Shown here piece by piece: positions 1,429 through 45,793 of a DNA stretch of 64,000 nt. Origin of the DNA: Arenicellales bacterium (GTDB lineage Bacteria; Pseudomonadota; Gammaproteobacteria; Arenicellales; JAJDZL01); NCBI GenBank assembly GCA_965200765.1, contig OZ241380.1:1106417-1170416 (forward strand). Reading direction: 5' to 3'. Both the position numbers and the translations under genes were made by a program. Each line of letters begins with the position of its first letter. Positions within the stretch are counted from its first letter, which is position 1. The notes under the pieces were generated by a model, which worked only from the letters and a program-made list of their open reading frames with translations, was not told the origin of the DNA and made no database searches.

Positions 1429-2097
1429 CTACAGCGCGCGTCTCACATCTTGCTGGCGTTGTGAAATGTAGTTTTTCATTGCCAGTTCGGCGCGGTCCGG
1501 ATCGCGCTGGGCGATAGCTTCGGCAACATCATGCGTCATCACCTCGTGTGCTTCGGCGATAGAATGCCAATTCCCCAGTTTTGATGAGATAAAGAACCAA
1601 AGGCGCAGGTGAAGATTGAATATTCTCGGAATTGCTTCAGCCAAATATCCATTCTGAGATGCTTCTGCCAATACCTTGTAGAATTTTCGGTCCAGAAAAA
1701 CATACTGGTCAATGTTGTCATCGCGAGTTGCCTGAACCAAAGCCTGGTGAATATCAAGCAAGTCATCAGCTTGCTTGGCAGTTGCCCGATTTGCGGCAAG
1801 CCGGCAGGCAAACCCGTCAATCAAACTTCTGAATTCGTAGATTTCCTGCATTGCCGTATAGCTGATTTCCGAAACAAACATGCCGCGATTCAGGCGATGC
1901 ACAACCAGTCCTTCACGCGCCAGCCGTTGCAACGCTTCCCGAACTGGCGTGCGGCCGATATTCAGCTCTTCCACCAAAACTTGTTCTGCCAAAACAGCAC
2001 CGGGTTGAAGGTCCAGACGGGTAATGCGGGTTACGAGTTCATTGTAGGCCTTGTCTGCAAGGGAAACGGGAGGTGATTTTTCAGTTGAGTTGGGCAT
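1429..2097 (-). CDS. GntR-family (FadR/FCD-type) transcriptional regulator
   Basis: N-terminal wHTH (LNIGRTPVREALQRLAREGLV) followed by an all-helical FCD-like C-terminal domain. It is the last gene of the co-directional operon, 12 nt after the upstream gene. Confidence 0.85.
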   Translation of the reverse strand: MPNSTEKSPPVSLADKAYNELVTRITRLDLQPGAVLAEQVLVEELNIGRTPVREALQRLAREGLVVHRLNRGMFVSEISYTAMQEIYEFRSLIDGFACRLAANRATAKQADDLLDIHQALVQATRDDNIDQYVFLDRKFYKVLAEASQNGYLAEAIPRIFNLHLRLWFFISSKLGNWHSIAEAHEVMTHDVAEAIAQRDPDRAELAMKNYISQRQQDVRRAL

Positions 2098-2109: not shown

Positions 2110-3063
2110 CTACGATTCAGGTGAAGCAACAAGTGTTCCCAATCCTTTTGACAACTTGTCTGTATCCAACTGTTGGCCAATGATCACAAGACGGTTGGTC
2201 GATCGTGGGGCGGCTTCCGAAATATCAAGTTGCCCCGCCGAATACTGAACCAGTACAGGTTGATCGTCTATCTGCATAAATCCTTTCATTCGCCAAACCG
2301 TATCAGGCAGCACATCACAATATTGTTTGAATTCAGAGCGGGTGATATCGACCCTGGGTTCAATCACGATTGACATCATCAGCTCGTGAACATGATGATG
2401 GTGATGATGATGGTGCGAACTGGACGGTTCACTCGCATCAGCTTCAGCATCCAGAACCAGGTCCTTTTCAATTTGGCACTGCTCGGTAAAGTAAATCAGC
2501 CCGTCGGGATTGATATTTTTGACTTCGCATGCAACTTTTCGAAGCTCATCTTTATCGGCCAAATCGATTTTGTTGACTACGACGATATCGGCATTCAAAA
2601 TTTGTGATTCGTAGAATTCGCCTAGCATGGAGCGAATTTTGTTGAATTTCGCGGCATCGACAACTGTAACGATCGGACAGATGTCAAAATTTGCTGAAAC
2701 AGAGGGGTCTTCAAAGTCGTCCAGCATATCTTCAGGGTCAGCAACACCACTAGCTTCAACAATAATTCTCTGTGCACCGGCATCATTCACGAGTTCTTCT
2801 GCGGCATTTAGCAACGATCCTTTCAGCGTGCAACAAAGACAACCTGAATTCAATTCTACTGTATCAATCGCGTTGCCTTGAATAATGTCGCCATCCACAC
2901 CGACATCACCAAACTCATTGACAATAATCGCCGTAGGAACTTCATTGCCGGCAGTTTCAATCAAATGGCGCACAAGCGTAGTTTTGCCGGAGCCAAGAAA
3001 TCCAAACAGGAGATGCAGGTTCGCTTGATTCGAGTGCGATCGGGTTGAAGTTTCTGTCGACAT
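2110..3063 (-). CDS. COG0523 / CobW-type G3E P-loop GTPase metallochaperone with His8 tract
   Basis: Walker A GFLGSGKTT, COG0523 hallmark GCLCCT, NKID (NKxD). A His-rich linker SSSHHHHHHHHVH (nt 2391-2414) precedes a CobW_C-like domain. Confidence 0.85.
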   Translation of the reverse strand: MSTETSTRSHSNQANLHLLFGFLGSGKTTLVRHLIETAGNEVPTAIIVNEFGDVGVDGDIIQGNAIDTVELNSGCLCCTLKGSLLNAAEELVNDAGAQRIIVEASGVADPEDMLDDFEDPSVSANFDICPIVTVVDAAKFNKIRSMLGEFYESQILNADIVVVNKIDLADKDELRKVACEVKNINPDGLIYFTEQCQIEKDLVLDAEADASEPSSSHHHHHHHHVHELMMSIVIEPRVDITRSEFKQYCDVLPDTVWRMKGFMQIDDQPVLVQYSAGQLDISEAAPRSTNRLVIIGQQLDTDKLSKGLGTLVASPES

Positions 3064-3069: not shown

Positions 3070-5022
3070 TTACTGCGATATAGATTCTGTAGATCGTTTA
3101 ATCCGTGTTTCTCTTCGAGACTTTGCGGTTGACCTCGCTGCCGATGGAAACGGCATTCCGGAAAATGACATGGAATCCACGAAAATATCCTGAAAATCCG
3201 GACGTGCGGCAAGCGCAACATGTTCAATGCTTTGACTGATTTCATATGCGGATTGGCGTTCGGTTTCCGACAGCAATGCCATTTGTGCACCAAGCAGAGC
3301 TGCATTGCCTACATAGGCGATACGCTCATGCGGCAAATTGGGTAGCAAGCGAATGGTTTTGGCACTTTCGATACTGACATAATTGCCAAATCCACCACAA
3401 AGCATCAGTTGTTCAATTTGTTCATCCTGAATATTCATGACAGTTTGAAGCATGCGAATTCCTGAATAAATAGCACTCTTTGCCAATTGCAACTGTCTGA
3501 CATCGCCTTGTGTGACACCGATGTTTTTCTTCTTGCCAGTTTCTTGATTCCAAACGAGGACGAATTCGGCCGAGCCATTGTCTGATTTTACCAACCGTTC
3601 CCGAATGCAGTCCGGCAACTCTTCAAGGTCCCGCTTTCGCATGTTTCCGTTGCTATCCATAATATGCGAATCAATCATTTTCGCCGCAGCATCAATGAGT
3701 CCTGAACCACAGATTCCAATTGCCGGCACGTCGCCGATGATCAGGCAGTTAAAATCGTTATTCACCTCGACTTTTTCAATTGCACCCAAAGCCCCCCGCA
3801 TGCCGTCTCGAATCTGTGCACCTTCCAGTGCCGGACCAGCTGGAGCAGAGCATGCCGTCATTCGTTTGCGCGACCCCATGACAACTTCGCCATTGGTGCC
3901 GATATCCACCAGTGCGCGAATCTCTTCACTCTCATGAATTCGAGTGGACAAGATGCATCCGACTGTATCAGCACCGACAAAACCTGCAATGATCGGTAGC
4001 AAGCATACCTTTGCCTTGGGTGCCGCCTTGAGCGGCAGATCGGCAGAGCTCAGAACCAGATTTTCCCGAACCACGGGAGCGTATGGCGCCAAGCCTACGT
4101 AAGAAACATCAATCCCGAGAAAAATATGATGCATGCAGGTATTGCCGACTACGACAATTTTATAGACATGCTCGGGTGATACGCCTGCTTCTTTGCAGGT
4201 TTGACGAATATATTCGTTCACTGCATTCAGAATTTTGGCGCGCAACGTAGACAATTTTTTATCGTCAAATTGCGCGTAGGCGATGCGCGACATCAGGTCG
4301 CCGCCATACACGGCTTGCGGATTTACACCGCCCGCCGAGGCCAGTTGTTCGCCAGATTTCAGGTCTAGCAGAGTTGCAACTACGCTAGTAGTGCCAATGT
4401 CAAAAGCCATGCCGTAGACGTGCTCCGTGGTATCACCGGCTTCAACATCAATCAACTCGCCATTGAATGTCGTAATTGTCAATTTGCCATTTTCGGCCCG
4501 AAGCAATTGGGGAATTTTACGTAGCAAATGAATGGAAGATTGAGTTGCATCGAGTTCGGCCGCACCCAGAATTTCCTCAATGTCTGAAGTCTGGTGATGT
4601 TCTTCAACCGGGAGGTTTGCGTGAATGATTCGTTTCTCCACACCACTGTCAAGGTGCATGCGATGGTTGTCCATTGACGAGTTTCCCGATTCAAGAATTT
4701 GATGTCCTTGCTCGGCTTTCGGCGGCACCGCCATGACAGTTGTATCGCCGAGCATACGCGTCTGACAGGCGAGGCGAAAACCTTCGTGAACTTCATCATG
4801 TCCTAGCTGCACTGAATCTTGTACAGTGGGCGGTGGTGTATCACCTTCCAAAATCTTGACCCGACAACTGCGACAACGCCCACGGCTACCGCAAGTTGCG
4901 TCGATATTGATTCCAGCCTGGCGCGAGGCTTCCAGAATTGTTGCGTCGCGAGCTACATTGACGGTTCTCGGTTTCTCGGCGCTACTGAGACCAACAAAAG
5001 TAACTGCAATGTCGGCAGACAT
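3070..5022 (-). CDS. RACo-like reductive activator of corrinoid proteins ([2Fe-2S] ferredoxin + ASKHA/DUF4445 ATPase)
   Basis: N-terminal plant-type ferredoxin pattern CGSRGRCRSCRV...LACQT. The C-terminal part has actin/sugar-kinase-fold phosphate motifs AFDIGTTSV and LVDIGTNGEVV. Its start overlaps the stop of the corrinoid protein gene. Confidence 0.8.
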   Translation of the reverse strand: MSADIAVTFVGLSSAEKPRTVNVARDATILEASRQAGINIDATCGSRGRCRSCRVKILEGDTPPPTVQDSVQLGHDEVHEGFRLACQTRMLGDTTVMAVPPKAEQGHQILESGNSSMDNHRMHLDSGVEKRIIHANLPVEEHHQTSDIEEILGAAELDATQSSIHLLRKIPQLLRAENGKLTITTFNGELIDVEAGDTTEHVYGMAFDIGTTSVVATLLDLKSGEQLASAGGVNPQAVYGGDLMSRIAYAQFDDKKLSTLRAKILNAVNEYIRQTCKEAGVSPEHVYKIVVVGNTCMHHIFLGIDVSYVGLAPYAPVVRENLVLSSADLPLKAAPKAKVCLLPIIAGFVGADTVGCILSTRIHESEEIRALVDIGTNGEVVMGSRKRMTACSAPAGPALEGAQIRDGMRGALGAIEKVEVNNDFNCLIIGDVPAIGICGSGLIDAAAKMIDSHIMDSNGNMRKRDLEELPDCIRERLVKSDNGSAEFVLVWNQETGKKKNIGVTQGDVRQLQLAKSAIYSGIRMLQTVMNIQDEQIEQLMLCGGFGNYVSIESAKTIRLLPNLPHERIAYVGNAALLGAQMALLSETERQSAYEISQSIEHVALAARPDFQDIFVDSMSFSGMPFPSAARSTAKSRRETRIKRSTESISQ

Positions 5023-5023
5023 T

Positions 5024-5731
5024 TCAAGCCCAGGCTTCTCTTTGCTCTTGCACTAGTCGAAGGGCGAGACGAACCGCTTCAACTGCATCTTTTCCCCAGC
5101 CATCTGCACCACATTCGTCGGCCCAATCCTGGGTTGTCGGTGCGCCGCCAATCAAGATCTTCACTTTGCCACGATGACCGGCATTACAAAATTCGTCAAT
5201 GGTAACTTTCTGATAGTAGACGGTCGTGGAAAGCAGGGCAGAAAACCCGATCAGATCAGCATTTTCTTCCAGCGCAGTTTGAATGAACCGGTCGGGATGA
5301 ACATCCGTACCCAAATTGATGACCCGGAAGCCGGCATTTTCAAGCATGATGGTCACAATGGATTGTCCGATATCATGCATATCGCCCAGTACAGTTCCAA
5401 TCACGAAAGTACCGACCGGTTTTTCCGCCATGGCGGCCAAAAGCGGACGAATCAGTGCCAATCCCGCTTTCATCGCACGCGCGGTGATCAACATTTCCGG
5501 AATAAAAATCACCTGTGCACTAAATCGGTCTGCTTGCAGATTGAAGCCCGGAAACAATCCGTCGTCCAAAATGACTCGCGGGTCGATATCAGCATCAATG
5601 GCTTGCTTGACCCTCTCGTCCGTATAGACATGATCGCCGGTTTCAACAGCATCCCAAAGTGTTTCCCATTCCCAGCCTTCGGGGGCTCGTTCTTCCCAGC
5701 CTGTTGGAATTTCTAATTCAGGTTCGTCCAT
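5024..5731 (-). CDS. Corrinoid (cobalamin-binding) protein, MtaC/MtgC/MetH-B12-domain type
   Basis: B12-binding motifs DxHxxG (GDMHDIGQ), SxL (SALLSTT) and GG (LIGGAP), preceded by a helical cap domain. Confidence 0.9.
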   Translation of the reverse strand: MDEPELEIPTGWEERAPEGWEWETLWDAVETGDHVYTDERVKQAIDADIDPRVILDDGLFPGFNLQADRFSAQVIFIPEMLITARAMKAGLALIRPLLAAMAEKPVGTFVIGTVLGDMHDIGQSIVTIMLENAGFRVINLGTDVHPDRFIQTALEENADLIGFSALLSTTVYYQKVTIDEFCNAGHRGKVKILIGGAPTTQDWADECGADGWGKDAVEAVRLALRLVQEQREAWA

Positions 5732-5754
5732 GGTTGCAGCTCCGATGAGTTTCT

Positions 5755-6924
5755 CTAGTTCAGTGGATATTTGCCATAAGTGCCAAAGTCGCGTTGTGCT
5801 TCCAGCATTGTAAAAATGTTTTGAATTGGCACATCGGCGAGTATGTAGTGGGCCGGTGAAAAAATATAACCACCGCCAGTCGCCAGGTTTTTCATAACTT
5901 CGCAGACACCGTTTCGTACGGCTTCAACTTGGCCGCGAGGAAGTAGTCTCTGTACATCAAATCCACCGATGAATGCAATGTCATCCCCGTACTGTTTTTT
6001 CAGATCGACCTGGTTCTTGTTGCCGCCTGTGGGTTGCATCAGGCCTGACAGGTCAACTCCAAGTTCAATCATGTCGCCGATGATCGGAGAGTAGTCTCCG
6101 CAAGAATGCAACTTGATGAAGATATCCTTGTTGGTTTCACGGAATTTCTTGAACATATAGTCAAATCTGGGTTTGCCCAGCTCACGCCACTGCTGTGGAG
6201 ATATCATCATGGATTGCTGTGCGCCGACATCATCGCCCACGCGAATCATGTCAATTCCCAGGTCAATTACGTTTTGTCCAAGTTTGGTGTAGTATTCGGT
6301 TAGTCCGTCCAGCACACCATGGATCAGCTCCGGTTCATCAAACAGATAGAGAAAGAAATTCTGTGTGCCAACCAAATGAGCGTAGGCCGCTTCGATCAAT
6401 GTGGAAGACAGGTCGACGATTATGAAATACTCGTCCTGATATTGGTCCAACAACGTACGAATTGGACCAATCAATTCTTCATCAGCCGGGTCTGGCCATG
6501 TATAGTTTTTCAAGTCTTCCATGGAGGTAATTGGGTGAAAGTTGGGAAAATTTTCCGGTACGACTTTGGCGGGTCCCCAAAAATCCTGCGTTTTCTGGAA
6601 CTCAAGGTGTTCTTCTTCGGTTCTGCCTTTGAGTCCGCTTTTGCCATAGCCAACTCCAAAGTGGTTGTACCAGGTTTCACCGATTGCAATGGGTCGATGG
6701 GAAAATTCGGCATTGATTCCGATTTGATAAATAATTGCATCGTTTCCCAGCCGAAGTTCCAATTCCGGATTGTGCTTCAAGCCTGTACCGGTTTTTTCAA
6801 TCCCGAAAACGCGGGCGATTTTCTCCTTGGCTTCGCTTTTCATGCGATACAGAAGGGGGACACGGTCCACAGGTTCGTGCCTGACAGCCCGTGCGAATCG
6901 TTCACGAGGAATTAACTCTTTCAT
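5755..6924 (-). CDS. URO-D-family (MtaA/MtbA/MtsA/CmuA-N-like) corrinoid-dependent methyltransferase with putative Zn site
   Basis: Length and overall pattern fit the uroporphyrinogen-decarboxylase-like methyltransferase family. It has an HxC motif KLHSCGD (H273 nt 6106-6108, C275 nt 6100-6102) and a downstream Cys (C341 nt 5902-5904). Confidence 0.75.
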   Translation of the reverse strand: MKELIPRERFARAVRHEPVDRVPLLYRMKSEAKEKIARVFGIEKTGTGLKHNPELELRLGNDAIIYQIGINAEFSHRPIAIGETWYNHFGVGYGKSGLKGRTEEEHLEFQKTQDFWGPAKVVPENFPNFHPITSMEDLKNYTWPDPADEELIGPIRTLLDQYQDEYFIIVDLSSTLIEAAYAHLVGTQNFFLYLFDEPELIHGVLDGLTEYYTKLGQNVIDLGIDMIRVGDDVGAQQSMMISPQQWRELGKPRFDYMFKKFRETNKDIFIKLHSCGDYSPIIGDMIELGVDLSGLMQPTGGNKNQVDLKKQYGDDIAFIGGFDVQRLLPRGQVEAVRNGVCEVMKNLATGGGYIFSPAHYILADVPIQNIFTMLEAQRDFGTYGKYPLN

Positions 6925-6989
6925 GGTGTCTGTTCTCCTGGATCAATTGGGTTAAGTGATTGAGTGAATTTTACAAACATTGCCTGAAT

Positions 6990-8000
6990 TTACTTCATGC
7001 TCTTGCGAGCGGTTCTGTTTGATTTGGTAATTGATCGAATGTATCGTAGATACTGTACAGAAAACTCGTCTTCTGCTGTAAGTGCATTCACTGCAAACCG
7101 AAAGTCGTCGAACGGCTTCACCGGATTCATAATCGGGTCGATCATCAGGGAATCACAACCGGCCAGAATGGACAGACTGACAAAAGCATGGTTCAAGATT
7201 TTCCTTTGTGGCAGTCCGAATGACACGTTGCTGTGTCCGCCGAATATATGAACTTTCGGATAGCGGGAACGCATTGTTCGCACTGCGTCCAGATAGTGGT
7301 TGCCGAAATCCGGTCCGGCACCAATGGGAAACACCAGCGGGTCCAAAAAACGATCCTCTATTGCGATGCCACCTTCCTCCATCATACTCATGCATTGTTC
7401 AAGATTTTCAATGCGTTGTTCAGCATTCTGGGGCATGCCTTTATTGCCACTTGCATTTGCGAACAGCAAGGCATTTCGCTCTTTTGCCATATCTACAAGC
7501 ACTTGTCTGCCATCTTCCAGATTGAACGAATTAATTGCAGGTCTGCTGATTGACCCGTCGTGTGCTTCCAGGCCCGCGTAAATCGTGTTTGAATCCGAAG
7601 AATCAATCGAAACAATACTGCTGGTGATGGATTGGGCAGTTTTGACGAGCCATTTTATCCATTCGTAGCGTTCTTCGGGATACACAGACATTTCGTCAAC
7701 ACACAGATCAATGATATGTGCACCCCCGCGTTCTTGAGCTCGAATCACCCAGGTGATGTAATCCATGTTCTTTTGTCGGCATGCTTCGGCGATGTGCGGA
7801 ATGGCGAAGAGCGCCTGTTCGTTCGGATCTTCCGGCATGCTACTCGTAACATCCAATCGTCCGGGAGTCGAGTCCAGTTTCGTATAAGTTACAAAAAATT
7901 TCCCATTTTCTTGTATCACACGAGTGCTGGATGCCTTGATTTTTCGAGTGGCATTGAAATTTTCGCCGATGATGACCAAGCCGTTATTTGCTACTTTCAT
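6990..8000 (-). CDS. Pterin-binding methyltetrahydrofolate:corrinoid methyltransferase (MetH-pterin/AcsE/CmuB/MtgA-like)
   Basis: DHPS-like TIM-barrel family. The N-terminal LVIIGENFNATRK resembles the IGERxN motif of MeTr/MetH pterin domains. IIDLCVDE and GLPQRK-type motifs are present. Confidence 0.75.
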   Translation of the reverse strand: MKVANNGLVIIGENFNATRKIKASSTRVIQENGKFFVTYTKLDSTPGRLDVTSSMPEDPNEQALFAIPHIAEACRQKNMDYITWVIRAQERGGAHIIDLCVDEMSVYPEERYEWIKWLVKTAQSITSSIVSIDSSDSNTIYAGLEAHDGSISRPAINSFNLEDGRQVLVDMAKERNALLFANASGNKGMPQNAEQRIENLEQCMSMMEEGGIAIEDRFLDPLVFPIGAGPDFGNHYLDAVRTMRSRYPKVHIFGGHSNVSFGLPQRKILNHAFVSLSILAGCDSLMIDPIMNPVKPFDDFRFAVNALTAEDEFSVQYLRYIRSITKSNRTARKSMK

Positions 8001-8021
8001 AGAATTGATTCCGTAACTTTG

Positions 8022-8678
8022 TCACTCGGGGAGCAATCCGTACATTCCGGAGCGCGACATTTTCGGAAGCATGGCGGCGCTTTCCAGAAGTGAAATGGGA
8101 ATTTGCGTGTCATCAAAAACCGTGAACAACTTTTTCTGGTCAAACAGGTCCCACTGAATCTGGTGTCCATCAATGGGATAGGAATAACCCGGTCCGAGTC
8201 GACGCGTGATTCTGAGTTGTTGCTTGTGTGCCCAACGGCGGGTTGTAATCACAAACTGCTTGGTGGCATTTTCGACACTCAGCCAAGCGGCCGATTCCAG
8301 AAACAGTGCCTCCACCAGCAACTCTTCATCCATCCATTGAATGGTTTGGTCGTCGACGGCTTTTCCGGCGGTCAAAGCAAATATGACGGCTTCTTTCGAG
8401 TTATTCATATATCGTTGAAAAATCTGGCTCTTCATGGAGACACCATTTTCCAGCACAATCTTGTCCTCATCAAGACAATCAACTGCAACAATGCGGTAGC
8501 TGACAGTGGGTTGAACAACGTCTGTCAATGCCTGAATAGCTGTTTCAGCTGCCTTGACAACCGCTGGTCGCACTTTTGCACCTTCCTTGTATCCATGTAT
8601 TCGCAATACAGAATCAAGTTTCGGTTTTGACTTGGCAAGTGAAACAGTTTGAGTTCGACCTCTTACTAAATTGTCCAT
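8022..8678 (-). CDS. Stand-alone MetH activation (AdoMet-binding reactivation) domain-like protein
   Basis: At 218 aa it matches the size of stand-alone Met_synt_B12-domain proteins. RRLGPGYSYPIDGH resembles the RxxxGY AdoMet-binding motif of the MetH C-terminal domain. Confidence 0.6.
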   Translation of the reverse strand: MDNLVRGRTQTVSLAKSKPKLDSVLRIHGYKEGAKVRPAVVKAAETAIQALTDVVQPTVSYRIVAVDCLDEDKIVLENGVSMKSQIFQRYMNNSKEAVIFALTAGKAVDDQTIQWMDEELLVEALFLESAAWLSVENATKQFVITTRRWAHKQQLRITRRLGPGYSYPIDGHQIQWDLFDQKKLFTVFDDTQIPISLLESAAMLPKMSRSGMYGLLPE

Positions 8679-8785: not shown

Positions 8786-9634
8786 TTAACTGGTATTTTC
8801 CGGTTTTGGAAGCCGGGTCGCCAAGAGTTTGTACAAACCTGCGCCGACAACTGCCCCTACCATTGGTCCCAAAATATAGACAATGAAAAATCCGCCGCGA
8901 GGTCCTGGTATGGCAATATTTCCCCAGCCGAGAAAGAATGCGGCCAGACGGGGGCCGAAATCACGCGCCGGATTCATGCAACCCATGGTAATCGGACCCA
9001 GCACTGAAATGATTGCAGCGACGCAAACACCAATTACGACAGCCGCGATAGGAAAGTTTGGACGAGCATCATTGTGCGGGTGAATCACTGCTGCGATCAC
9101 AAACGCCATGACACCTGTACCAACGATTTCAGCGATAAACGCGGTGGGCATGCCAACAATCTGCCATGCTTCTTCACCTGTACCGTAGGTAGCCGGATTC
9201 GGAAAGTACAGACCGTAAGCCATTGCGCTTAGCTGACTGCCGGGTTCGCCTCGCAAAATCTCAAGTTTCGCTTCATAGGCCAGTATGGCATCGGCGAAGA
9301 TATAGTGAACAACAAACCCGGCGCAAACACCGGCAGTAATCTGAACGATCCAGTAGGGCAGAATTCGCCTGGCCGGAAAACCGTTCCAAACGGCGAACAT
9401 TAATGTAACAGCAGGATTAATGTGCGCCCCCGAAAGAGTTGCGGCTGTATAGATTCCCAGCGTTACACCAATCCCGGCAATGACTGCCACTTGCCACACT
9501 CCCATTTGTGCGCCGCCGATTGCTGCTGCGTGAGCTGAGCCGATACTAAAGAATACTAGTACGAATGTCCCTAAAAATTCTCCGCTGAGAGCTGACTTCA
9601 AGCTGGGGAGAGTTTGCTTGTCGTTGTCAGACAA
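8786..9634 (-). CDS. MIP-family channel (aquaporin/aquaglyceroporin-like)
   Basis: Hydrophobic six-helix pattern with two NPA boxes (GAHINPAVT and GCMNPARDFG). Confidence 0.9.
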   Translation of the reverse strand: MSDNDKQTLPSLKSALSGEFLGTFVLVFFSIGSAHAAAIGGAQMGVWQVAVIAGIGVTLGIYTAATLSGAHINPAVTLMFAVWNGFPARRILPYWIVQITAGVCAGFVVHYIFADAILAYEAKLEILRGEPGSQLSAMAYGLYFPNPATYGTGEEAWQIVGMPTAFIAEIVGTGVMAFVIAAVIHPHNDARPNFPIAAVVIGVCVAAIISVLGPITMGCMNPARDFGPRLAAFFLGWGNIAIPGPRGGFFIVYILGPMVGAVVGAGLYKLLATRLPKPENTS

Positions 9635-9677: not shown

Positions 9678-10595
9678 TTAGTTTACGCTGATTGACGTAT
9701 TGTCTTCACTCAGCGAAAATCTTCCGTCGGCTACTGCTTGAAACCAATCGGATGATTTTTTGAGTCCCCCAAAAGGATACACATGAAGTTTTTGAATCGG
9801 GCAGTCTGGATTGTCGCGACGAAACTGTGCCAATTCAATCAGGAGTTTCTCCGGTGTTGAGTTTTGTAACAGTTTGGAAGTGTTTTGCGCTTGCCGCCTC
9901 AATACCTTGATTGAAGGGCCTACACCGCATTGCATTGCATGTCGAAGCAGTGTTCCAAGCGTTGCAACTCCTGGCGCACCGATGTGAACGGGGAGTTCAA
10001 TTCCATCGTCGTCGATTTTCTTTTGCCAGCCGAGTACGGTTTTTGATTCAAAGCAGAATTGCGTGATGATGTAAATCTCGGCACTGGTGTGTTGAGCAAA
10101 CTCATTTTTCCAGTCCAAAGCCAATTTGATGTCTTTGTCCGGAATGTCAGGACTGCCTTCCGGATGACCTGCAATACCGATTTTTTGAATGCCGTACTTG
10201 TCGAACAATCCGGTTTGAAGCAACTGCATGGAATTCGAGAATTCACCGACTGGCTTGGCCGAACCGCCAGCGATTGCGAGAATCTGCCTGGAATCGTTTT
10301 CTTCTGTGAACCGCTTCAATCCGGTTTCCAGTACTTCTTCATTTTGAATTTGACGGGCCGCGAAATGCGGTACCGGAGTTAATCCTTCGGACGACAGTCG
10401 CTGGCACAAATTCAATGTATCGTACAAATGGGTGCCGGGTAGCAGGGTGACGTACACTTCGGTCTTGCTTGGCAAAATATCGCGATAGCTTGAAATTTTG
10501 GCCGCGGCTCCGGGCGTAGTTTCAACCGAATATCCCTGAGTCAATTCCTGGATGTGTGAAAACGTGCTAACAGACAATGTTTTTTCCTCGATCAT
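9678..10595 (-). CDS. Methylenetetrahydrofolate reductase (MetF)-like protein
   Basis: MTHFR-family motifs in the correct order: SVETTP (cf. SFEFFPP), VPHFAAR, LAIAGG, AGHPEGSP (cf. GYPEGH), ITQFCFE (cf. TQFFFD). Confidence 0.75.
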   Translation of the reverse strand: MIEEKTLSVSTFSHIQELTQGYSVETTPGAAAKISSYRDILPSKTEVYVTLLPGTHLYDTLNLCQRLSSEGLTPVPHFAARQIQNEEVLETGLKRFTEENDSRQILAIAGGSAKPVGEFSNSMQLLQTGLFDKYGIQKIGIAGHPEGSPDIPDKDIKLALDWKNEFAQHTSAEIYIITQFCFESKTVLGWQKKIDDDGIELPVHIGAPGVATLGTLLRHAMQCGVGPSIKVLRRQAQNTSKLLQNSTPEKLLIELAQFRRDNPDCPIQKLHVYPFGGLKKSSDWFQAVADGRFSLSEDNTSISVN

Positions 10596-10631: not shown

Positions 10632-11165
10632 CTACTTCCACTCAAAGTAAACCACTGCGTCGTGAAAATCGTTGATGTCTTCTTCGCAGGAGGACAGAAT
10701 TCTGAAACCGTCATTGCTCTCGTTTCGCCAATTCATGTCAAGCATAATACGATTGGCAACCCAATAGTCAGATATCTTGTGTCCGATCAATACGAACACC
10801 AATGAGTTGCTGATTACGATGCCGTCGTCCGGCCCCAATCGTGTATTCATCGGACGAGGAGTTTGCCAATCTGCAACAATGTTGCTAGCGTCAGCATCCA
10901 GCGAGTCCACGATTGCAACGCGCTGAATCGGCCACGCAAAGGAATTACCGGTGATTTTCGTCTCTCCTTCAGGCAACTTGCAGGCCACCGCGAGAAGATG
11001 GTCGCCGCGGAAGGAGAGTTTGTCGTACAGGTTTTGACTACCATCAACGGCAACACAACCGGTTTCATTCAATTCGTTCAGTGACTGAATTGGCGGTGCA
11101 ACCCAGTCCATATTTTTCAATGAATGGCGGTTGAATTGAGGTACAGGAAATCGTTTTGCCCACAT
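10632..11165 (-). CDS. Hypothetical protein, first gene of the corrinoid operon
   Basis: 177-aa ORF, co-directional and 36 nt upstream of the MTHFR-like gene. No TM segment, signal peptide or motif I recognise. An alternative start lies at MDWVAPP. Confidence 0.55.
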   Translation of the reverse strand: MWAKRFPVPQFNRHSLKNMDWVAPPIQSLNELNETGCVAVDGSQNLYDKLSFRGDHLLAVACKLPEGETKITGNSFAWPIQRVAIVDSLDADASNIVADWQTPRPMNTRLGPDDGIVISNSLVFVLIGHKISDYWVANRIMLDMNWRNESNDGFRILSSCEEDINDFHDAVVYFEWK

Positions 11166-11398: not shown

Positions 11399-11689
11399 AT
11401 GGCGAAAGTAACAATTCTTTACTGGCAGGATATACCGTCTGTCGTAGAAGCCCGCGAGGGCAGGGAAGTACACAAAGAATTACTTAGCGAGCGATTTCAG
11501 GAGCTGATCGACCTGGTTGCGATGAAGAAGAATTTGGCCGGCACAGACGACTACCTCAATCACTGGACTAAAGGTTCCCCTACGACAGTTGAGGGTTCAC
11601 CCGAGGAAGCGGCACGAAAGGTCAAGGAAGAACTTGAAGCTCGCTACAAAGAAATCCGTAAAGAAGAACTCGCGAAGGCGGTTGGTTAG
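11399..11689 (+). CDS. Small 'virulence factor'-domain family protein (function unknown)
   Basis: 96 aa. The N-terminal KVTILYWQDIPSVVEA motif matches my recollection of the Pfam Virulence_fact family, often found next to MTHFR and corrinoid methyltransferase genes. It is divergent from the operon. Confidence 0.5.
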   Translation: MAKVTILYWQDIPSVVEAREGREVHKELLSERFQELIDLVAMKKNLAGTDDYLNHWTKGSPTTVEGSPEEAARKVKEELEARYKEIRKEELAKAVG

Positions 11690-20057: not shown

Positions 20058-20681
20058 TTAACCTGATTGCCAATTCAGCATTCCTTCGTGTTCAATAAAT
20101 TTCACGACTTCATCAAGGCCTTCACCGCTCTTGAGATTGGTAAACACAAAAGGTCGCTCATCGCGCATCTTTTTCGTATCTCGTTCCATCACTTCCAATG
20201 AAGCACCGACATGCGGTGCCAAATCGGTCTTGTTGATCACCAGCAAGTCCGAACGGGAAATTCCCGGGCCGCCTTTTCGGGGAATTTTGTCGCCGGCGGC
20301 TACATCAATGACGTAGATTGTCAAATCCGACAATTCCGGACTGAAGGTAGCTGCAAGATTATCGCCGCCGCTTTCAACTATTACCAAATCAAGATTTCCA
20401 AATCGCTGATGAAGTTCATCTACGGCATTGAGATTTATTGACGCATCTTCCCGAATTGCAGTATGTGGGCAACCGCCCGTTTCTACACCGATGATGCGAT
20501 TGGCTTCCAGACTTTCGTGGCGAACCAGAAACAGTGCATCTTCTTTCGTGAAAATATCATTGGTGACCACCGCAATCTGGTAGTTGTTTCGCATTCGCTT
20601 GCACAGCGAGTCCACCAATGCGGTCTTGCCGGCACCCACAGGACCGCCAATTCCCAATCGAAGTGTTGAATTGGAACTCAT
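20058..20681 (-). CDS. ureG: Urease accessory GTPase UreG
   Basis: P-loop [21 protein letters not shown]; strong UreG pattern. Confidence 0.95.
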
Positions 20682-20684
20682 CTT

Positions 20685-21386
20685 CTATGAGCGAAACATG
20701 CGACTGTATTGATCTTCGTGCAATGCGCTTCCAATAGCCATTGCTGGGGCAGTTTGACCGATATTGTCATCTTCCAGGTCGTTAACCGCATCAATCCACT
20801 CCGGTATGTTCTTGGCGCAATGCGACAATATTCGTTGTCCTGAAGTTTGACCAAGTGGCACCAGTCTGATTGCTGACGCAACCTGATGTTCACACCATAC
20901 CCACAAATACGCATGTTGCATTGTTAGTTTATTGATTCCCCATTCGCAGGCGGCCAAACTGAAAAGTGTGGCCCAACTTGTTTCGACGGTATCGAACCAC
21001 TGTTCAGCTCGTCTAATGCCCAAATCACTCAGCAACTTGGCTAATGCAATGCCCATTTGACGATCTTCCGCTAGCAGTTCTGAAGATTCTCTGAATGCAA
21101 TGAGAAACTGACTCCATTCGAAAACCTTTGATAGATCATCTTCTTTCCACGCATCGAACATTCGTCCGATTACTGGAATGTCCAGATGGCAAACATTGTG
21201 ACAGGCAATTTCGGAAATCCAGTCGTGAGCATCTTGTTCACAATTTATCCAGTCTCGGTGCACAGCGTATTCCAAACCGGTGGAATACGAATATGCTCCA
21301 ACTGGCAACGCAGGGCTGGCGAGTTGCAGTAGTCTGCAAATCGGAATGTCATTGTTGACACTAGTTGTGAGAGTGCCTATGTCCAA
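20685..21386 (-). CDS. ureF: Urease accessory protein UreF
   Basis: Position between ureE and ureG, and a UreF-like helical sequence (LLQLASPALPVGAYSYSTGLE). Confidence 0.85.
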   Translation of the reverse strand: MDIGTLTTSVNNDIPICRLLQLASPALPVGAYSYSTGLEYAVHRDWINCEQDAHDWISEIACHNVCHLDIPVIGRMFDAWKEDDLSKVFEWSQFLIAFRESSELLAEDRQMGIALAKLLSDLGIRRAEQWFDTVETSWATLFSLAACEWGINKLTMQHAYLWVWCEHQVASAIRLVPLGQTSGQRILSHCAKNIPEWIDAVNDLEDDNIGQTAPAMAIGSALHEDQYSRMFRS

Positions 21387-21801
21387 GATAGGCTCCTGAT
21401 TCCGGATTGAATGGTGCCTCGCCTACATCAACAGTGAGACCCAATCCGCGTATCATGTCATCCAGTACGTCATCGTGTGAATATCGTAGCCAGTTTGTTC
21501 CAATTTCAAGTGGCACATGTCGATTGCCCAGATGAAAGGCAGCCCGCGCAATTTGTTGCATATCACTGCAAATTATCGTTGAAACTGATTCACAAGCGGA
21601 CCGAATTTCAACGACAAATCCATCACTTGCTGAAATCTGGTCGCCCTCATTCAATGAATTTCCGCGCGGCAATTCGAGACCTGCTTCTTCGCCATTGTCC
21701 AGCTTGATTCGCTGACGGGAGAGTTTTCTTTTCTCGCTTGGAAGAGTCAAATAGGTGTCCGGAGATTGTTGTTGAACAAGCTTGCGGTTGAACATTCTCA
21801 T
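21361..21801 (-). CDS. ureE: Urease accessory protein UreE
   Basis: Sits directly after ureC, with the UreE pattern (HLGNRHVPLEI) and a C-terminal His-containing tail (GHRHSHN). Confidence 0.85.
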   Translation of the reverse strand: MRMFNRKLVQQQSPDTYLTLPSEKRKLSRQRIKLDNGEEAGLELPRGNSLNEGDQISASDGFVVEIRSACESVSTIICSDMQQIARAAFHLGNRHVPLEIGTNWLRYSHDDVLDDMIRGLGLTVDVGEAPFNPESGAYLGHRHSHN

Positions 21802-21803
21802 TG

Positions 21804-23507
21804 TCAGAACAAAAAGTATCGTTGTGCCAATGGCAGTGTTTTTTCCGGTTCTGCTGTCAGCAACTCTCCATCCGCACGAACTTCATAGGTTTGCGGGTCA
21901 ATTTCCATATTTGGCAAGTAACTGTTGTGTACCATGTTTCGTTTTGAAATTTGTCGACAGTTTTTCACTGGCGTAATTCGTTTCTGCAGACCTAGTTGCT
22001 CACCCAAATTGCGGTCAAAAGCCGCCTGAGATACAAAACTTAAACTAGTCGCACTGGGTGCGAGTCCATAGGCACCGAACATAGGCCGAAAGTGAACTGG
22101 CTGAGGAGTTGGAATTGAAGCATTTGGATCGCCCATTGCGGCGGCGGCAATCATTCCGCCCTTGATGACAATGTAAGGTCGTACACCGAAAAAAGGTGTT
22201 TCCCAAATCACCAAATCCGCCAGTTTGCCCACTTCGATTGAACCGATTTCATGAGAAATACCGTGTGCGAGGGCAGGGTTGATCGTGTATTTTGCGATAA
22301 ATCGCTTGACTCGATGATTATCATGCTCAGCGGAGTCTTCGGTCAACGTGCCGCGTTGTTTCTTTTGGCAATGTGCAACTTGCCAAGTTCGCAGAATCAC
22401 TTCACCGATACGTCCCATTGCCTGAGAGTCTGAGCCAACCATGGAAATAGCTCCCATATCATGCAAGATGCCTTCCGCCGCAATTGTTTCCGGACGAATT
22501 CGGGATTCTGCGAATGCGATGTCTTCTGCCAACTTGAAATCCAGGTGATGGCAAACCATCAGCATGTCAAGGTGTTCACTGACAGTGTTCACACTGTAAG
22601 GGAGTGTGGGGTTCGTGCTGGAAGGCAGTACGTTGCTTTCGCCGCAAGCGCGCATGATGTCGGGGGCATGTCCACCGCCGGCACCTTCGGTGTGATACAT
22701 GTGAATGTTTCGTTCTTTGAAGGCGGCGAGTGTATCTTCCAGAAAGCCCGATTCATTCAGTGTATCGGTATGCAGAGTTACCTGAATGTCGAATTCCTCG
22801 GCAACGCCAAGGCAACAGTCAATCGCAGCCGGGGTAGAACCCCAGTCTTCATGCAGTTTTAATCCAACACAGCCGGCTTCTACTTGCTCTCGCAAAGCTT
22901 CGGGTTGACTGGAATTTCCCTTGCCGGTAAATCCAAAATTCAAAGGCATGGAATCGATTGACTGGTACATACGGTGAATGTTCCATGGGCCGGGTGTGCA
23001 AGTTGTCGCTTTGGACCCGGTAGCCGGTCCGGTGCCGCCGCCGATTAGTGTGGTTGTACCAGACATGAGTGCTTCTTCGGCCAGTTGTGGGCAGATAAAA
23101 TGCACATGAGAGTCAATTGCACCGGCGGTAAGAATCTTGTTCTCACAATCAATGATTTCAGTTCCCGGTCCGATCAGCAGGTTTACACCTGATTGAGTGT
23201 TGGGGTTGCCGGCCTTTCCAATTCCGGCTATGCGTCCGTTTTGAATGCCAACATCTGCTTTGACAATTCCCCAATGGTCGATCACCAAAGCGTTGGTGAT
23301 CACTGCATCCATGACATCATCACCACAATATTGGCTCTGTGCCATGCCATCCCGAACAGTCTTGCCGCCGCCGAATTTTGTTTCTTCGCCAAATACCGTA
23401 TGGTCCTTTTCAACTTGAACCCACAAGTTCGTATCACCCAGCCGGACACAATCCCCGGTCGTGGGTCCATACATTTCTGTATAAGCAACACGATCGATTT
23501 TAGCCAT
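21804..23507 (-). CDS. ureC: Urease alpha subunit
   Basis: 567 aa with the metal-binding HVHFICPQ, the carbamylated-Lys region GLKLHEDWG, and MVCHHLD. Confidence 0.97.
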
Positions 23508-23811
23508 CCAGATTCCCCATTACCTTTGCATTGAAACCGTAGATGCTTCGCGTGCCGGCATATTCGACCAGCTCTACGGTTCTCGATTGACCCGGTTCAA
23601 AACGAACCGAAGTTCCAGCGGGAATATTCAATCGATATCCTCTTGTACTCGCACGGTCGAAATGCAGTGCAGAGTTCACTTCATGGAAATGAAAATGGGA
23701 ACCAACCTGAACAGGGCGGTCCCCGCTGTTTGCAACTTTCACTGTTACAGTCTTGCGACCAGTATTGATCTCGACTGCATCCGGCTTCAGTCTGTATTCA
23801 CCCGGTATCAA
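23500..23811 (-). CDS. ureB: Urease beta subunit
   Basis: MIPGEY...[11 protein letters not shown] is the canonical UreB pattern. Confidence 0.95.
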
Positions 23812-23829
23812 ACGATGCTTTCCTTGTTA

Positions 23830-24132
23830 CTAAACAATTGGATTATGGATTGACACCAACTTGGTGCCGTCAGTAAACGTAGCTTCCACCTGAAGTTGAG
23901 GGATCAGTTCCGGCACGCCTTCCATGACATCATCGCGGGTTAGCAGGTTCGTTCCGAAATCCATCAGCTCGGCAACGCTTTTGCCATCACGCGCACCTTC
24001 CAGTACGGCGGCCGAGATATATGCAACAGCTTCCGGGTAGTTCAGCTTCAAACCGCGCTCCTTTCGCCGTTCAGCCAGAAGTGCGGCCGTAAACACCATT
24101 AGTTTGTCTTTTTCTTGCGGAGACAGATTCAT
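23830..24132 (-). CDS. ureA: Urease gamma subunit
   Basis: [23 protein letters not shown] is the canonical UreA N-terminus. The ATG at 24132 is preferred over the ORF-track start at 24153. Confidence 0.95.
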
Positions 24133-24341
24133 CGGATTCTCACAAAATCTCAAACATCAAAACACACTATGGAAGCCTTCCGAGTCTTCCACAATTGCAT
24201 TGCATCAAACAAAATAGTGCAGAAGATTTCCTGCGTGCTTGAGTGTCTATTCAACAGTAAAACTATGTTCAAATTATAATCAAAATGGCAGGCAGGGTAG
24301 CCTGAGTTCAGAAATCGTAGCAAATTTGTTACCGCTTTAAA

Positions 24342-25202
24342 TCAAGTGTTCCAAATTCGAGGTTGAACAGGGTTTCTGCCCAACGCGTCAGAACGAATTA
24401 TATTCCAAGCGATTTGAAGCAGATTTTTCGCTTCTTCTGCATGGTGCCCCAAATATCTGCAGACTGTGACTTCAGACAGTGCAGTGGCTGAAAACAACAC
24501 ATCGCTTGGTGTTGAAACACTGTCGCGAATTTTCCGAACCAGAGAATCGTCTCGTTTTGAAAAAACAAGGATTCCGGATACGGTGTATCCTTGCAAACCC
24601 CAGCGGCTATTCAAAACTTTACAGTCATCTGTGAACCGTGTTCGCTCTATCCACAACGGGCGAGAATTTCTCCAAATTTCAAATTTCTGCCGTATATTGC
24701 ACAAGTGAAGAGTTTCCCCACTCGCCGGTCGCCCGAAACAACTGATATCCCATCCCAGAAACTCACCCTGGTTGCACAGGTCAACATGAATTGAAGAATT
24801 AATGCGAGCATCATTGAAGTAGATGGTTTCCTGGGGGAGCCACTCCAGAATTCCATTTGTCTTGACATACATTTTCAAATTTTGGGTCACAGGAGGACGT
24901 GGTCCGCATCGATAGATCTTTGTTGCGCCTGGAGTGGTTACCAATCCACAAGCACCGGTGCTCACCTTAATATTCATAACAATTCTGTCTCCGCCGACAT
25001 AGCCACCTGGAGGGTGAATTACATAGACGTGGGAGACACCGTCGCCTTCGGGATAAAACGGGCTTTGCACCAACAACGGACCGATATGATGACGGTCGAC
25101 AAGAACAGTTTTCTTTCCTCGTTTTGCGAATCGAAAACCAAGCGATGCGAGCCAACCGGTGGCCTGGCTACTGTTCTCAACTTTCAAGGCATCTTGCAAC
25201 AA
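24342..25202 (-). CDS. ureD: Urease accessory protein UreD
   Basis: 286 aa upstream of ureABC with a UreD/UreH-like pattern (HPPGGYVGGD). Confidence 0.85.
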   Translation of the reverse strand: MLQDALKVENSSQATGWLASLGFRFAKRGKKTVLVDRHHIGPLLVQSPFYPEGDGVSHVYVIHPPGGYVGGDRIVMNIKVSTGACGLVTTPGATKIYRCGPRPPVTQNLKMYVKTNGILEWLPQETIYFNDARINSSIHVDLCNQGEFLGWDISCFGRPASGETLHLCNIRQKFEIWRNSRPLWIERTRFTDDCKVLNSRWGLQGYTVSGILVFSKRDDSLVRKIRDSVSTPSDVLFSATALSEVTVCRYLGHHAEEAKNLLQIAWNIIRSDALGRNPVQPRIWNT

Positions 25203-43363: not shown

Positions 43364-44458
43364 ATGCGATTTGAATCATCCTTGTTTAGCCCCATCTCGT
43401 TCAGAGGCTTGCAGTTGCGAAACCGAATCATGGTTTCGCCGATGTGTCAGTACTCCTCGCACAATGGATGTGTTTCCGACTGGCACAAGATGCATCTGGG
43501 TCAATTTGCAGTGTCCGGTGCGGGCTTGTTGATTGTTGAAATGACGAATGTGGAACCACGCGGCCGTATCAGTCCGAAATGTGCCGGTTTGTATGACGAG
43601 GCGACCGAAGTTGCATTCAGGGAAGTGGTGGATTTTTGCAAGCATTACGGTCATGTGCCAATAGGAGTGCAGTTGGCCCATGCTGGACGCAAAGCATCTA
43701 CGGCACCGCCCTGGGAAGGGCGAACCTCCTTGCAACCGAACCATGGCGGATGGCAACCGGTTGCACCTTCCGCAATTCCTTATAACAACTCTGCACTGGT
43801 TCCAGGCGAGTTGACGGAGCAGGAAGTTTTTGAACTGGTTGACAAGTTTGTCGAGTCAGCTAGCCGAGCCGAACGGGTTGGCTTCGACGCAATTGAGTTG
43901 CATGCCGCGCATGGCTATCTTCTTCACCAGTTTTTGTCGCCGCTCTCCAACCACAGAAGTGACCAGTTCGGGGGTACCCCGGAGAATCGCATGCGGTTTC
44001 CCTTAAGCGTTTTTCGGGAAGTTCGTGCAGTTTGGCCAGATGACAAGCCGCTGGGCGTTCGAGTATCTGCAACCGATGGAATCGAAGGTGGCCTGGATCT
44101 GAATCAAACGATTGAGTTTGCCAAAGAATTGAAAAAACTGGGTTGTGACTGGATTGATGTTTCAAGTGGCGGTCTTGCGGGTCATCAGGATGTGAGCCCG
44201 GGTCCTGGTTATCAGGTGAATCTTTCCCGAGCTGTTCGGATTCAAGCGGATATTCCAACCATTGCAGTAGGGATGATTACGGAACCGGTGCAGGCCGAGC
44301 AGATTGTTCGGTCCGGCGATGCGGATGTCGTTGCGCTTGCAAGAGGGATGCTATTCAACCCGCGCTGGGTTTGGCATGCGGCCGAAGTGCTGGGGGCCAA
44401 AGCCGAATATCCCAATCAATATCTGCGTTGCCAACCATCTTTCGGTCTTCGAACATGA
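43364..44458 (+). CDS. Old Yellow Enzyme family NADH:flavin oxidoreductase
   Basis: MVSPMCQY and HAAHGYLLHQFLSP; TIM-barrel OYE pattern. Confidence 0.9.
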   Translation: MRFESSLFSPISFRGLQLRNRIMVSPMCQYSSHNGCVSDWHKMHLGQFAVSGAGLLIVEMTNVEPRGRISPKCAGLYDEATEVAFREVVDFCKHYGHVPIGVQLAHAGRKASTAPPWEGRTSLQPNHGGWQPVAPSAIPYNNSALVPGELTEQEVFELVDKFVESASRAERVGFDAIELHAAHGYLLHQFLSPLSNHRSDQFGGTPENRMRFPLSVFREVRAVWPDDKPLGVRVSATDGIEGGLDLNQTIEFAKELKKLGCDWIDVSSGGLAGHQDVSPGPGYQVNLSRAVRIQADIPTIAVGMITEPVQAEQIVRSGDADVVALARGMLFNPRWVWHAAEVLGAKAEYPNQYLRCQPSFGLRT

Positions 44459-45773: not shown

Positions 45774-45793
45774 CTGAATTGACAGGTATTTGA

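Follow-up and report, generated by a model that had tools for sequence, protein, structure and literature searches.

A stand-alone homologue of the MetH activation domain encoded with a RACo-type activator in a corrinoid methyltransferase gene cluster

How a corrinoid methyltransferase system comes to be equipped with two seemingly different modules for cofactor repair is the question raised by a gene cluster of an Arenicellales bacterium (contig OZ241380.1, positions 1,106,417 to 1,170,416; this whole stretch of 64,000 nucleotides (nt) is referred to below as the window). The two proteins concerned are a 650-amino-acid (aa) RACo-type reductive activator and a 218-aa protein, denoted ActD here, that is related to the S-adenosylmethionine (SAM, or AdoMet) domain through which the methionine synthase MetH is reactivated. 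The original prediction that both repair modules belong to one operon held: RACo (3070..5022) and ActD (8022..8678), whose minus-strand coordinates are exactly as had been predicted, lie in a single tightly packed cluster of ten minus-strand genes that spans 11165 to 1429, with 1-107 nt between neighbouring genes. Corrinoid methyltransferases must hold their cobalt in the highly oxygen-sensitive Co(I) state, which makes the matter relevant for aerobic marine bacteria. In the literature, PF02965 proteins and RamA-like proteins (with DUF1638) are contrasted as alternative means of B12 reactivation, with no PF02965 member in P. inhibens (Price 2018, PMC5764234), and Co(II) is described as reactivated by 'ATP- or SAM-dependent electron transfer' (Jacoby 2020, PMC7448270). 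We propose that in this cluster RACo and ActD cooperate in one repair machine acting on the same corrinoid protein, a reading to which we assign a probability of roughly one half.

Judged by its domains and motifs, the 650-aa protein is a complete RACo-type activator, as had been predicted for an ATP-driven [2Fe-2S]+ASKHA protein. All four Pfam domains were matched above their cut-offs (Fer2, E 8.6e-14; RACo_linker, E 4e-10; Raco_middle, E 4e-57; RACo_C_ter, E 2e-76), and residues 19-617 align with RACo of C. hydrogenoformans (PDB 3ZYY, E 1.2e-107). The cysteines of the [2Fe-2S] cluster (C44, C50, C53 and C86) and the ASKHA phosphate motifs (DIGTT, 208-212; DIGTNGE, 373-379) are in place. The score against the NCBIfam model for AcsV (NF040756) is 447 bits, short of the cut-off of 800, so the protein is to be regarded as a family member and not as an orthologue of AcsV; the cluster contains neither CoFeSP nor ACS genes.

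ActD, a stand-alone protein, is a divergent homologue of the MetH activation domain. The RxxxGY motif, on which the resemblance was originally noticed, is weak evidence by itself, and the homology is solid because of sequence matches to the PDB together with the predicted fold. The best phmmer match of ActD in the PDB is TM0269 of T. maritima (1J6R, E 3.7e-5), which a family profile of 27 sequences recovered with an E-value of 7.9e-11. When the AlphaFold2 model of ActD (pLDDT 96.3, pTM 0.90) was compared with the PDB using Foldseek, all 18 hits at E <= 1e-3 were MetH activation domains, and the next hit had an E-value of 0.18. The closest structure was again 1J6R (E 4.5e-12, TM 0.74/0.81), followed by MetH of E. 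coli, human and T. thermophilus; 1MSK, 2O2K and 8SSD were matched with E-values of 1e-7 to 1e-6. Sequence identity is low throughout, 13-16% to the activation domains of E. coli, human and T. thermophilus MetH and 21% to TM0269/1J6R. The motif RRLGPGYSYP contains RLGPGY (160-165), that is, RxxxGY from R160 to Y165, and a second motif, PKMSRSG, occupies residues 205-211. These align with RPAPGY of E. coli MetH (1134-1139, R1134 to Y1139) and with its segment 1167-1182 (PKMSRSG segment, 1173-1179). In an alignment of 27 ActD homologues, whose members are 35-68% identical to the window protein, R160, P163, G164, Y165, M203, P205, S208, R209, S210 and G211 are invariant.

The comparison with MetH by HMM (hidden Markov model) and structure, which had been named as the appropriate check, thus gave a clear answer for the fold and the motifs and a negative one for the sequence threshold. 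Against Pfam PF02965 (Met_synt_B12), ActD scores 18 bits (E 2e-3, residues 99-214 only), below the gathering cut-off of 25; a single-sequence hhalign comparison with E. coli MetH was similarly weak (probability 12.6%, E 2e-3), and no NCBIfam model was matched. Only 2 of the 120 listed ActD homologues have a precomputed PF02965 match, and wherever the source gives a name, it is 'hypothetical'. As it scores under the Pfam threshold, ActD would escape a survey made with PF02965. It represents a family that current annotation overlooks, which could explain why surveys report 'no PF02965' in bacteria that rely on RamA-like proteins.

The presumed common client of RACo and ActD is the corrinoid protein (5024..5731), encoded between them with gaps of 1-65 nt. 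It combines a B12-binding_2 cap (Pfam, E 1.3e-26) with a B12-binding domain (E 1.7e-14) and carries the His-on motif DMHDIG (117-122, DxHxxG as in MetH), SAL (164-166) and GG (195-196). Its scores against the NCBIfam pyl_corrinoid and MtgC-like models, about 172 bits, are below the cut-offs (for the MtgC models, 172 and 163 bits versus 310 and 370). Upstream of it lies a 389-aa methyltransferase of the URO-D/MtaA-CmuA family (5755..6924; Pfam URO-D, E 2e-31), presumably the substrate-specific methyltransferase (MT1) of the system. Its closest solved relative is MtaA (PDB 4AY7, E 1.6e-9); HSC (273-275) aligns with the HxC of the MtaA zinc motif, whereas the third cysteine is replaced (SPAH, 356-359), and the score against the MtaA/CmuA subfamily model is 82 bits at a cut-off of 235. 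The gene for a pterin-binding methyltransferase (6990..8000; Pfam Pterin_bind, E 2.8e-17; NCBIfam PRK07535, 179 bits) starts 21 nt downstream of the ActD gene and encodes a predicted methyl-corrinoid:tetrahydrofolate (THF) methyltransferase of the MeTr/MtgD/CmuB-like kind. These genes have the make-up of a three-component system, namely, a capped stand-alone corrinoid protein with a THF methyltransferase and a URO-D methyltransferase in the same operon.

The cluster further encodes, with the pterin methyltransferase, a methylenetetrahydrofolate reductase (9678..10595) that matches the Pfam MTHFR family weakly (26 bits). By its sequence it is of the S6MTHFR type: residues 16-285 match PDB 7XG9 with an E-value of 1.1e-49, compared with 7e-6 for canonical MTHFRs. 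The 7XG9 structure is that of the FAD-containing S6MTHFR of Sphingobium lignivorans SYK-6, an enzyme that oxidises methyl-THF (CH3-THF), hardly binds NAD(H), does not use it and has been proposed as a partner of THF-dependent demethylases (PMC11868366). This relationship suggests a catabolic direction for the cluster, and the combination of corrinoid protein, pterin methyltransferase, URO-D methyltransferase and S6MTHFR-type reductase looks like a catabolic demethylase system. Three other identities were considered and rejected. Membership in the split MetH/MtgBCDE group does not apply, as Pfam found no match to PF06253, PF02574 or DUF1638 among the ten cluster proteins and the MtgC cut-offs are not reached. 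Type 1 mlp gene clusters (Kountz and Balskus, PMC10418091) belong to obligate anaerobes and encode several Mlps and no pterin methyltransferase. Nor is the URO-D methyltransferase a CmuA orthologue: tblastn against the PLSDB plasmids (E 1e-10) gave three weak hits, ~26% identical, to one Chloroflexota and two Subdoligranulum plasmids and none to a Methylobacterium plasmid (the presence of pCMU01 in PLSDB is unchecked). No ActD homologue was found on plasmids either.

The association of ActD with RACo recurs across species. One genome per GTDB species was scanned, which yielded 80 loci encoding ActD homologues in Arenicellales (~30), Magnetovibrio/Rhodospirillaceae, Hyphomicrobiales, Acidiferrobacterales, Betaproteobacteria and others. 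For 53 species-level loci flanked by 7 kb or more on each side (complete loci), the neighbours within 10 kb of ActD were identified with family HMMs. RACo was found in 37 of these, in Gamma-, Alpha- and Betaproteobacteria, and all loci with RACo also hold a B12-binding protein, which is present in 43/53. The pterin methyltransferase was detected in 41/53, in most loci within ~0.7-0.9 kb of the ActD start, and the URO-D methyltransferase in 36/53. The gene arrangement of the window (class I) also occurs with the pterin methyltransferase displaced (class II). In class III, ActD, the pterin methyltransferase and RACo are joined by a CmuA-like fusion of URO-D and corrinoid domains and by a PhnD-like ABC transporter; the trio with the CmuA-like fusion was seen in loci L057, L061, L064, L070 and L072. 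Classes IV and V, which are without RACo, are considered below, and class VI consists of orphans. In 8 related loci, a Bhmt-like PF02574 gene adjoins the cluster. The pairing of ActD with RACo is common in this lineage and not obligatory. Co-occurrence with RACo, which the original prediction had singled out as a check, is thus recurrent rather than rare; on the other hand, our literature search found no paper on a PF02965-type protein encoded with or fused to RACo/RamA.

Gene fusion is classical evidence for joint action of two proteins, and ActD-like domains are found fused to RACo. A search of 1.84 billion proteins with the ActD profile retrieved 4344 representatives at E <= 1e-3, 97 of them at E <= 1e-30. 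At least 37 clusters (at 90% identity) contain proteins of 789-839 aa whose N-terminal ~200 residues match the ActD profile with up to 116 bits (P0341, P0412-P0446 and others). Protein P0341 (839 aa) has the complete architecture, Met_synt_B12 followed by Fer2, RACo_linker, Raco_middle and RACo_C_ter, and is encoded in locus L089 (1551-4070) in the order unknown gene, fusion, corrinoid protein, URO-D methyltransferase. When used as a query, it retrieved dozens of RACo proteins of 789-839 aa, some of them from named sources (Anaerovoracaceae, Clostridium sp. HMP27); the few named fusions are from Firmicutes. All are annotated only as 'ASKHA domain-containing' or 'DUF4445'. The ActD-like part is joined to RACo by a CxxCxxxxC linker, and the same linker ends many stand-alone PF02965 proteins of the clostridial type.

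These stand-alone proteins with a C-terminal CxxCxxxxC tail form another PF02965 class, which heads operons in sediment and subsurface metagenomes (JGI; loci L094-L173). The gene order is ActD' (the PF02965 protein of this class), MttB-family methyltransferase, pterin methyltransferase, MttB-family methyltransferase and corrinoid protein, with no RACo nearby (for example, L135, 7998-13166). Among the 28 metagenome loci with at least 5 kb downstream, the corrinoid protein was present in 28, the MttB-family methyltransferase in 27 and the pterin methyltransferase in 21; RACo was found in 0 of the 28 with enough flank and in 1 of 80 overall. To judge from gene content, MetH-type activation proteins serve stand-alone corrinoid proteins in three ways: alone, beside RACo or fused to RACo. 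The original statement that known systems use one device or the other therefore survives in part. It agrees with the literature, in which ATP (RamA/RACo) and SAM (PF02965) are indeed treated as alternatives (PMC5764234, PMC7448270). However, the division into RACo for three-component systems and SAM for MetH is too sharp, because stand-alone PF02965 proteins are regular members of MttB-type operons without RACo.

In MetH, the electron for reactivation comes from flavodoxin or methionine synthase reductase (MSR), and the uphill reduction of Co(II) becomes productive because the activation domain, with AdoMet, captures Co(I) as CH3-Co(III). Given the conserved pairing and the fusions, the simplest reading of the cluster is that RACo is the electron donor and ActD the docking partner and methyl trap. 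We infer from this a ternary interaction of ActD, RACo and the corrinoid protein, a net flow of methyl groups from substrate to folate and the following order of events. The URO-D-type methyltransferase would pass a substrate methyl group to the Co(I) corrinoid protein, the pterin-binding methyltransferase would move it on to THF, and the S6MTHFR-type enzyme would oxidise CH3-THF to CH2-THF. Once the cobalt has lapsed to inactive Co(II), RACo and ActD would act jointly rather than as alternative routes. With ATP hydrolysis as the driving force, RACo would deliver a low-potential electron from its [2Fe-2S] cluster, while ActD would dock on the B12 domain, like the MetH activation domain and TM0269, favour the His-off form and trap the transient Co(I) with SAM as stable CH3-Co(III). 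The trapped methyl group could then leave to THF via the adjacent pterin methyltransferase.

Several observations weigh against such cooperation. Strongest among them is that PF13769 proteins (46/53 complete loci) and the S6MTHFR-type reductase (44/53) are more constant near ActD than RACo is (37/53). In five Arenicellales loci (class V; L014, L027 and L031-L033), only PF13769, the reductase, ActD and, in some, a MIP channel are present; these loci lack the corrinoid protein, the two methyltransferases and RACo. Four Hyphomicrobiales loci (class IV; L037, L041, L044 and L046) have the order PF13769, ActD, Bhmt-like homocysteine methyltransferase, reductase, with no RACo nearby. Systems with only RACo and systems with only ActD are also found, which suggests that either module may be enough by itself. 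In the fusions, the motif reads R-L-S-P-G-D, and because the Tyr of RxxxGY is thereby replaced with Asp, the fused domain may not use SAM. To these points are to be added the low sequence scores of ActD given above and the fact that SAM binding by the protein is itself a prediction from motifs and fold.

Much of this would be accommodated if ActD and the PF13769 protein served the methyl-THF/methionine node, with ActD as a trans-acting activator of MetH or split MetH or as a SAM-binding regulator of the reductase, a possibility that we regard as rather unlikely. Apart from the neighbour counts, it draws on the trio of ActD, PF13769 and reductase that occurs without corrinoid protein or RACo in the class V loci and in L078, and on class IV, where a full-length MetH (family f61) comes next in the three loci long enough to show it. 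TM0269 offers a precedent, in that we take it to be the stand-alone activation protein of a T. maritima MetH that lacks this domain. A missing-domain role fails to explain loci of the L041 type, however, because the L041 MetH, the one that was scanned with Pfam, has its own PF02965 domain (420 bits). Furthermore, in the window only 21 nt separate ActD from the pterin methyltransferase gene downstream, the two genes are close in most loci, the activation fold is known only as a partner of B12 domains, and fusions of ActD to RACo exist. If ActD did serve this node, its place in the operon could reflect the shared methyl-THF theme. The repurposing of one module as a SAM sensor or scaffold, raised as an alternative in the original prediction, would likewise be compatible with these neighbours.

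Redundancy under oxidative stress is one of the two explanations that the original prediction had offered. RACo with ATP, on the one hand, and ActD with SAM and a general reductant (flavodoxin or ferredoxin), on the other hand, would be two independent routes, both kept because the cofactor of an aerobe is often oxidised. Each module does occur alone in other corrinoid methyltransferase operons (ActD-type proteins without RACo in the MttB-type operons), RACo/RamA-only systems are the norm in the literature, and the host looks aerobic, given its ETF-QO (electron transfer flavoprotein-ubiquinone oxidoreductase), acyl-CoA dehydrogenase and AhpC and its arsenite-oxidase-bearing relatives. The idea fits poorly, however, with the fusions, the named ones of which are from Firmicutes and one of which lies in an ordinary corrinoid methyltransferase operon: that RACo carries a fused ActD-like domain in at least 37 clusters argues for physical cooperation that is not specifically tied to oxygen. 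Moreover, Pfam identified no flavodoxin or other reductase gene among the ten cluster genes. We therefore consider two independent routes unlikely. It appears quite improbable that ActD dispenses with AdoMet chemistry altogether and works only as an adaptor, which by docking or by its effect on conformation would keep the B12 domain uncapped and His-off for reduction by RACo. The Asp in place of the motif Tyr in the fusions would fit such an adaptor, as would the distance of ActD from the MetH activation domains and the existence of DUF1638, another non-catalytic-looking partner of RamA-like proteins. Yet none of R160, P163, G164, Y165 and the fixed residues of the C-terminal M-x-P-x-x-S-R-S-G segment varies among 27 sequences with only 35-68% identity to the window protein, as would be expected of an AdoMet site under selection.

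As to the substrate, the URO-D methyltransferase is conserved to an unusual degree. Each of the 120 homologues listed (of 337 with E <= 1e-10) is at least 78% identical to it; all but one are 389 aa long, none has a specific name, and the named sources range from Gammaproteobacteria and Acidiferrobacterales to Hyphomicrobiales. Within the same operons, ActD reaches only 36-60% identity. The genes aioB and aioA adjoin the S6MTHFR-type reductase gene of the cluster in ~10 species, in two gene orders: downstream of the GntR regulator and reductase (L036, L045, L048, L053, L056 and L087) or as an upstream block (L062, L065, L073, L077 and L078), with a MIP channel and a pentapeptide-repeat gene alongside. 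One representative per family was scored, and both exceeded the cut-offs (aioB, TIGR02694, 157 bits versus 96; aioA, TIGR02693, 994 versus 359). These neighbours, the aquaglyceroporin-type MIP channel and the PhnD-like (phosphonate/arsonate-type) transporters in the CmuA-like variants are purely contextual clues to an arsenical substrate, and the cluster might be an as yet undescribed aerobic demethylation pathway for methylated arsenicals (such as methylarsonate or dimethylarsinate). In such a pathway, the methyl group would be transferred to Co(I), with arsenite as leaving group, and passed on to THF for S6MTHFR-type oxidation; the arsenite would be oxidised by AioAB or exported via the aquaglyceroporin. 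In the annotated parts of the window, aio genes were not encountered, and we consider this substrate very unlikely.

The MIP-family channel itself (8786..9634; Pfam MIP, E 1e-37) is encoded next to ActD and has the boxes NPAVT and NPARD. The second box, with Asp after NPAR, presumably marks it as an aquaglyceroporin of the glycerol-facilitator type. Aquaglyceroporins conduct glycerol, urea and As(OH)3. A MIP gene is near ActD in 28 of the 80 loci. On the other side of the cluster, downstream of RACo, a CobW/COG0523-type G3E GTPase (2110..3063; Pfam cobW, E 2e-45, and CobW_C) contains the motif CLCC (75-78) and a His8 tract (217-224). It is co-located with ActD in 35/53 complete loci and probably is a metallochaperone for the system, to which it may deliver a metal (zinc or cobalt). 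The final cluster gene (1429..2097) encodes a GntR/FCD-family transcriptional regulator (Pfam GntR and FCD; 34/53). The first (10632..11165) encodes a 177-aa protein without Pfam or NCBIfam match that was found in 36/53 complete loci, comes and goes with the methyltransferase/RACo block and is absent from the class V loci. The best sigma-70-like site of the minus strand (11232-11203) is located just upstream of this gene. Control of the operon by a cobalamin or SAM riboswitch was considered and dropped, as Rfam at gathering thresholds gave no riboswitch for the operon.

Divergently from the cluster, on the plus strand, lies the gene for a 96-aa PF13769 ('Virulence_fact') protein without Cys (11399..11689; Pfam E 1.2e-15). 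Members of this family are encoded within 10 kb of ActD in 67 of the 80 loci and are its most constant neighbour; outside Arenicellales, the gene is mostly directly upstream of ActD on the same strand, at 270-560 nt (L035-L082), and it keeps its place beside ActD in loci that lack the corrinoid protein and RACo. The idea that PF13769 or the 177-aa protein makes up for the N-terminal part by which the MetH activation domain exceeds ActD was dropped, as hhalign against E. coli MetH, the L041 MetH and the ActD profile gave probabilities of no more than 1.7%. In alphaproteobacterial loci (L062, L073, L077, L078, L035, L039, L060, L065 and L076), a 227-aa class I SAM-dependent methyltransferase is encoded near PF13769-ActD, ~1.0-1.2 kb upstream of ActD on the opposite strand; it matches the NCBIfam model CpaM (corrinoid protein-associated methyltransferase) weakly (31 bits, cut-off 180). 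The PF13769 and 177-aa proteins are thus flagged as further unstudied partners, together with the very strongly conserved URO-D methyltransferase.

The same gene order, with proteins 99-100% identical, occurs on a 605-kb metagenome contig. Next to the cluster, a UvrA-like gene on the plus strand (19-1413) extends past the start of the window; on the identical contig L001 its product has 1861 aa, about twice the usual length of UvrA. Elsewhere the window contains a urease operon, ETF-QO, TctABC, DmmA-like and other amine-oxidation genes and an IS1595 transposase, and by its gene content fits an aerobic marine heterotroph. The urease operon (ureD, A, B, C, E, F and G; 20058-25202, minus strand) overlaps an Rfam match to 5_ureB_sRNA (81 bits, 23072-23359) on the strand opposite to the urease genes (plus), a match that is most likely explained by the conserved urease coding sequence and not by a genuine small RNA. 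An IS1595-family transposase followed by Oxidored_FMN, a DmmA-like_N+Fer2 protein, a short-chain dehydrogenase/reductase and the TctCBA transporter (~43364-47836 and 46808-49974, plus strand), with Gln-synt_C and DAO-type oxidases beyond the transporter stretch, looks like an island for oxidation of methylated amines or other amines.

Among known systems, the proposed pathway is comparable with two cases of aerobic catabolic demethylation into THF with subsequent oxidation of CH3-THF, namely, cmu of Methylobacterium extorquens CM4 (CmuA, CmuB and MetF2) and the system of SYK-6. In cmu, a URO-D-type methyltransferase that includes a corrinoid domain works beside a pterin methyltransferase, and with SYK-6 the cluster shares the S6MTHFR-type reductase. 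Unlike in cmu, methyltransferase and corrinoid protein are separate in the window and the methyltransferase is not close to CmuA, whereas the SYK-6 demethylases LigM and DesA use no corrinoid; neither system has been described with both RACo and ActD. The activators RACo, RACE and RamA (3ZYY, 4C1N; O-demethylase activators) have the same four-domain architecture as the window protein and are likewise encoded beside a corrinoid protein and methyltransferases. The described systems work without a MetH-type activation protein, however, and the host of the window cluster looks aerobic.

Modular systems of aerobic marine bacteria provide another parallel, the RamA-like proteins with DUF1638 of marine Roseobacter (split MetH/MtgBCDE) and MecG and MecH of the mec cassette (PMC5764234, PMC12478193). 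They have in common with the window a stand-alone corrinoid protein and a pterin methyltransferase, a RamA/RACo-type activator with a second accessory protein and a dedicated reductase for CH3-THF oxidation (in those systems a second MetF, MetF2). In the mec cassette and the split MetH/Mtg systems, RamA-like proteins depend on DUF1638 (PMC5764234, PMC12478193), and both RamA and DUF1638 are listed for MtgBCDE (Mausz 2025, PMC12478193). By analogy, DUF1638 may be seen as a precedent for a second accessory protein beside the activator. In the window, however, this second protein is a homologue of the MetH activation domain rather than DUF1638, and the MT1 is of the URO-D type rather than MttB/PF06253 or PF02574. 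MtgBCDE and split MetH are now known as abundant and active in the ocean, which gives the comparison its environmental relevance.

The MetH activation domain (PF02965; E. coli residues 897-1227) and ActD share the fold, RxxxGY and the segments ES-AM-P-x-x-S-x-SG-x-Y and A-x-T-x-G, and the presumed client of ActD likewise has a DxHxxG B12 domain. ActD differs in its length (218 versus ~330 residues), in being a separate polypeptide and in having a stand-alone corrinoid protein as its client, and where MetH takes electrons from flavodoxin or MSR, the window operon encodes the ATP-dependent RACo instead. The nearest counterpart is TM0269 (1J6R), which is stand-alone, has ~215 aa, the same fold and an R-x-S-P-G-Y motif and is the best PDB sequence match. 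TM0269 is annotated as a methionine synthase part, and to our knowledge no RACo is encoded with it. Unlike TM0269, to which it is 21% identical, the window ActD falls below the PF02965 threshold and is encoded in a three-component demethylase-type operon with RACo. The parts of the system are known; their combination, its conservation and the fusions appear to be undescribed. With the two genes paired in operons of dozens of proteobacterial species and covalently fused in Firmicutes, there are testable cases of combined ATP- and SAM-type repair, and the clients of MetH-type activation domains would be widened from MetH itself to the stand-alone corrinoid proteins of three-component systems.

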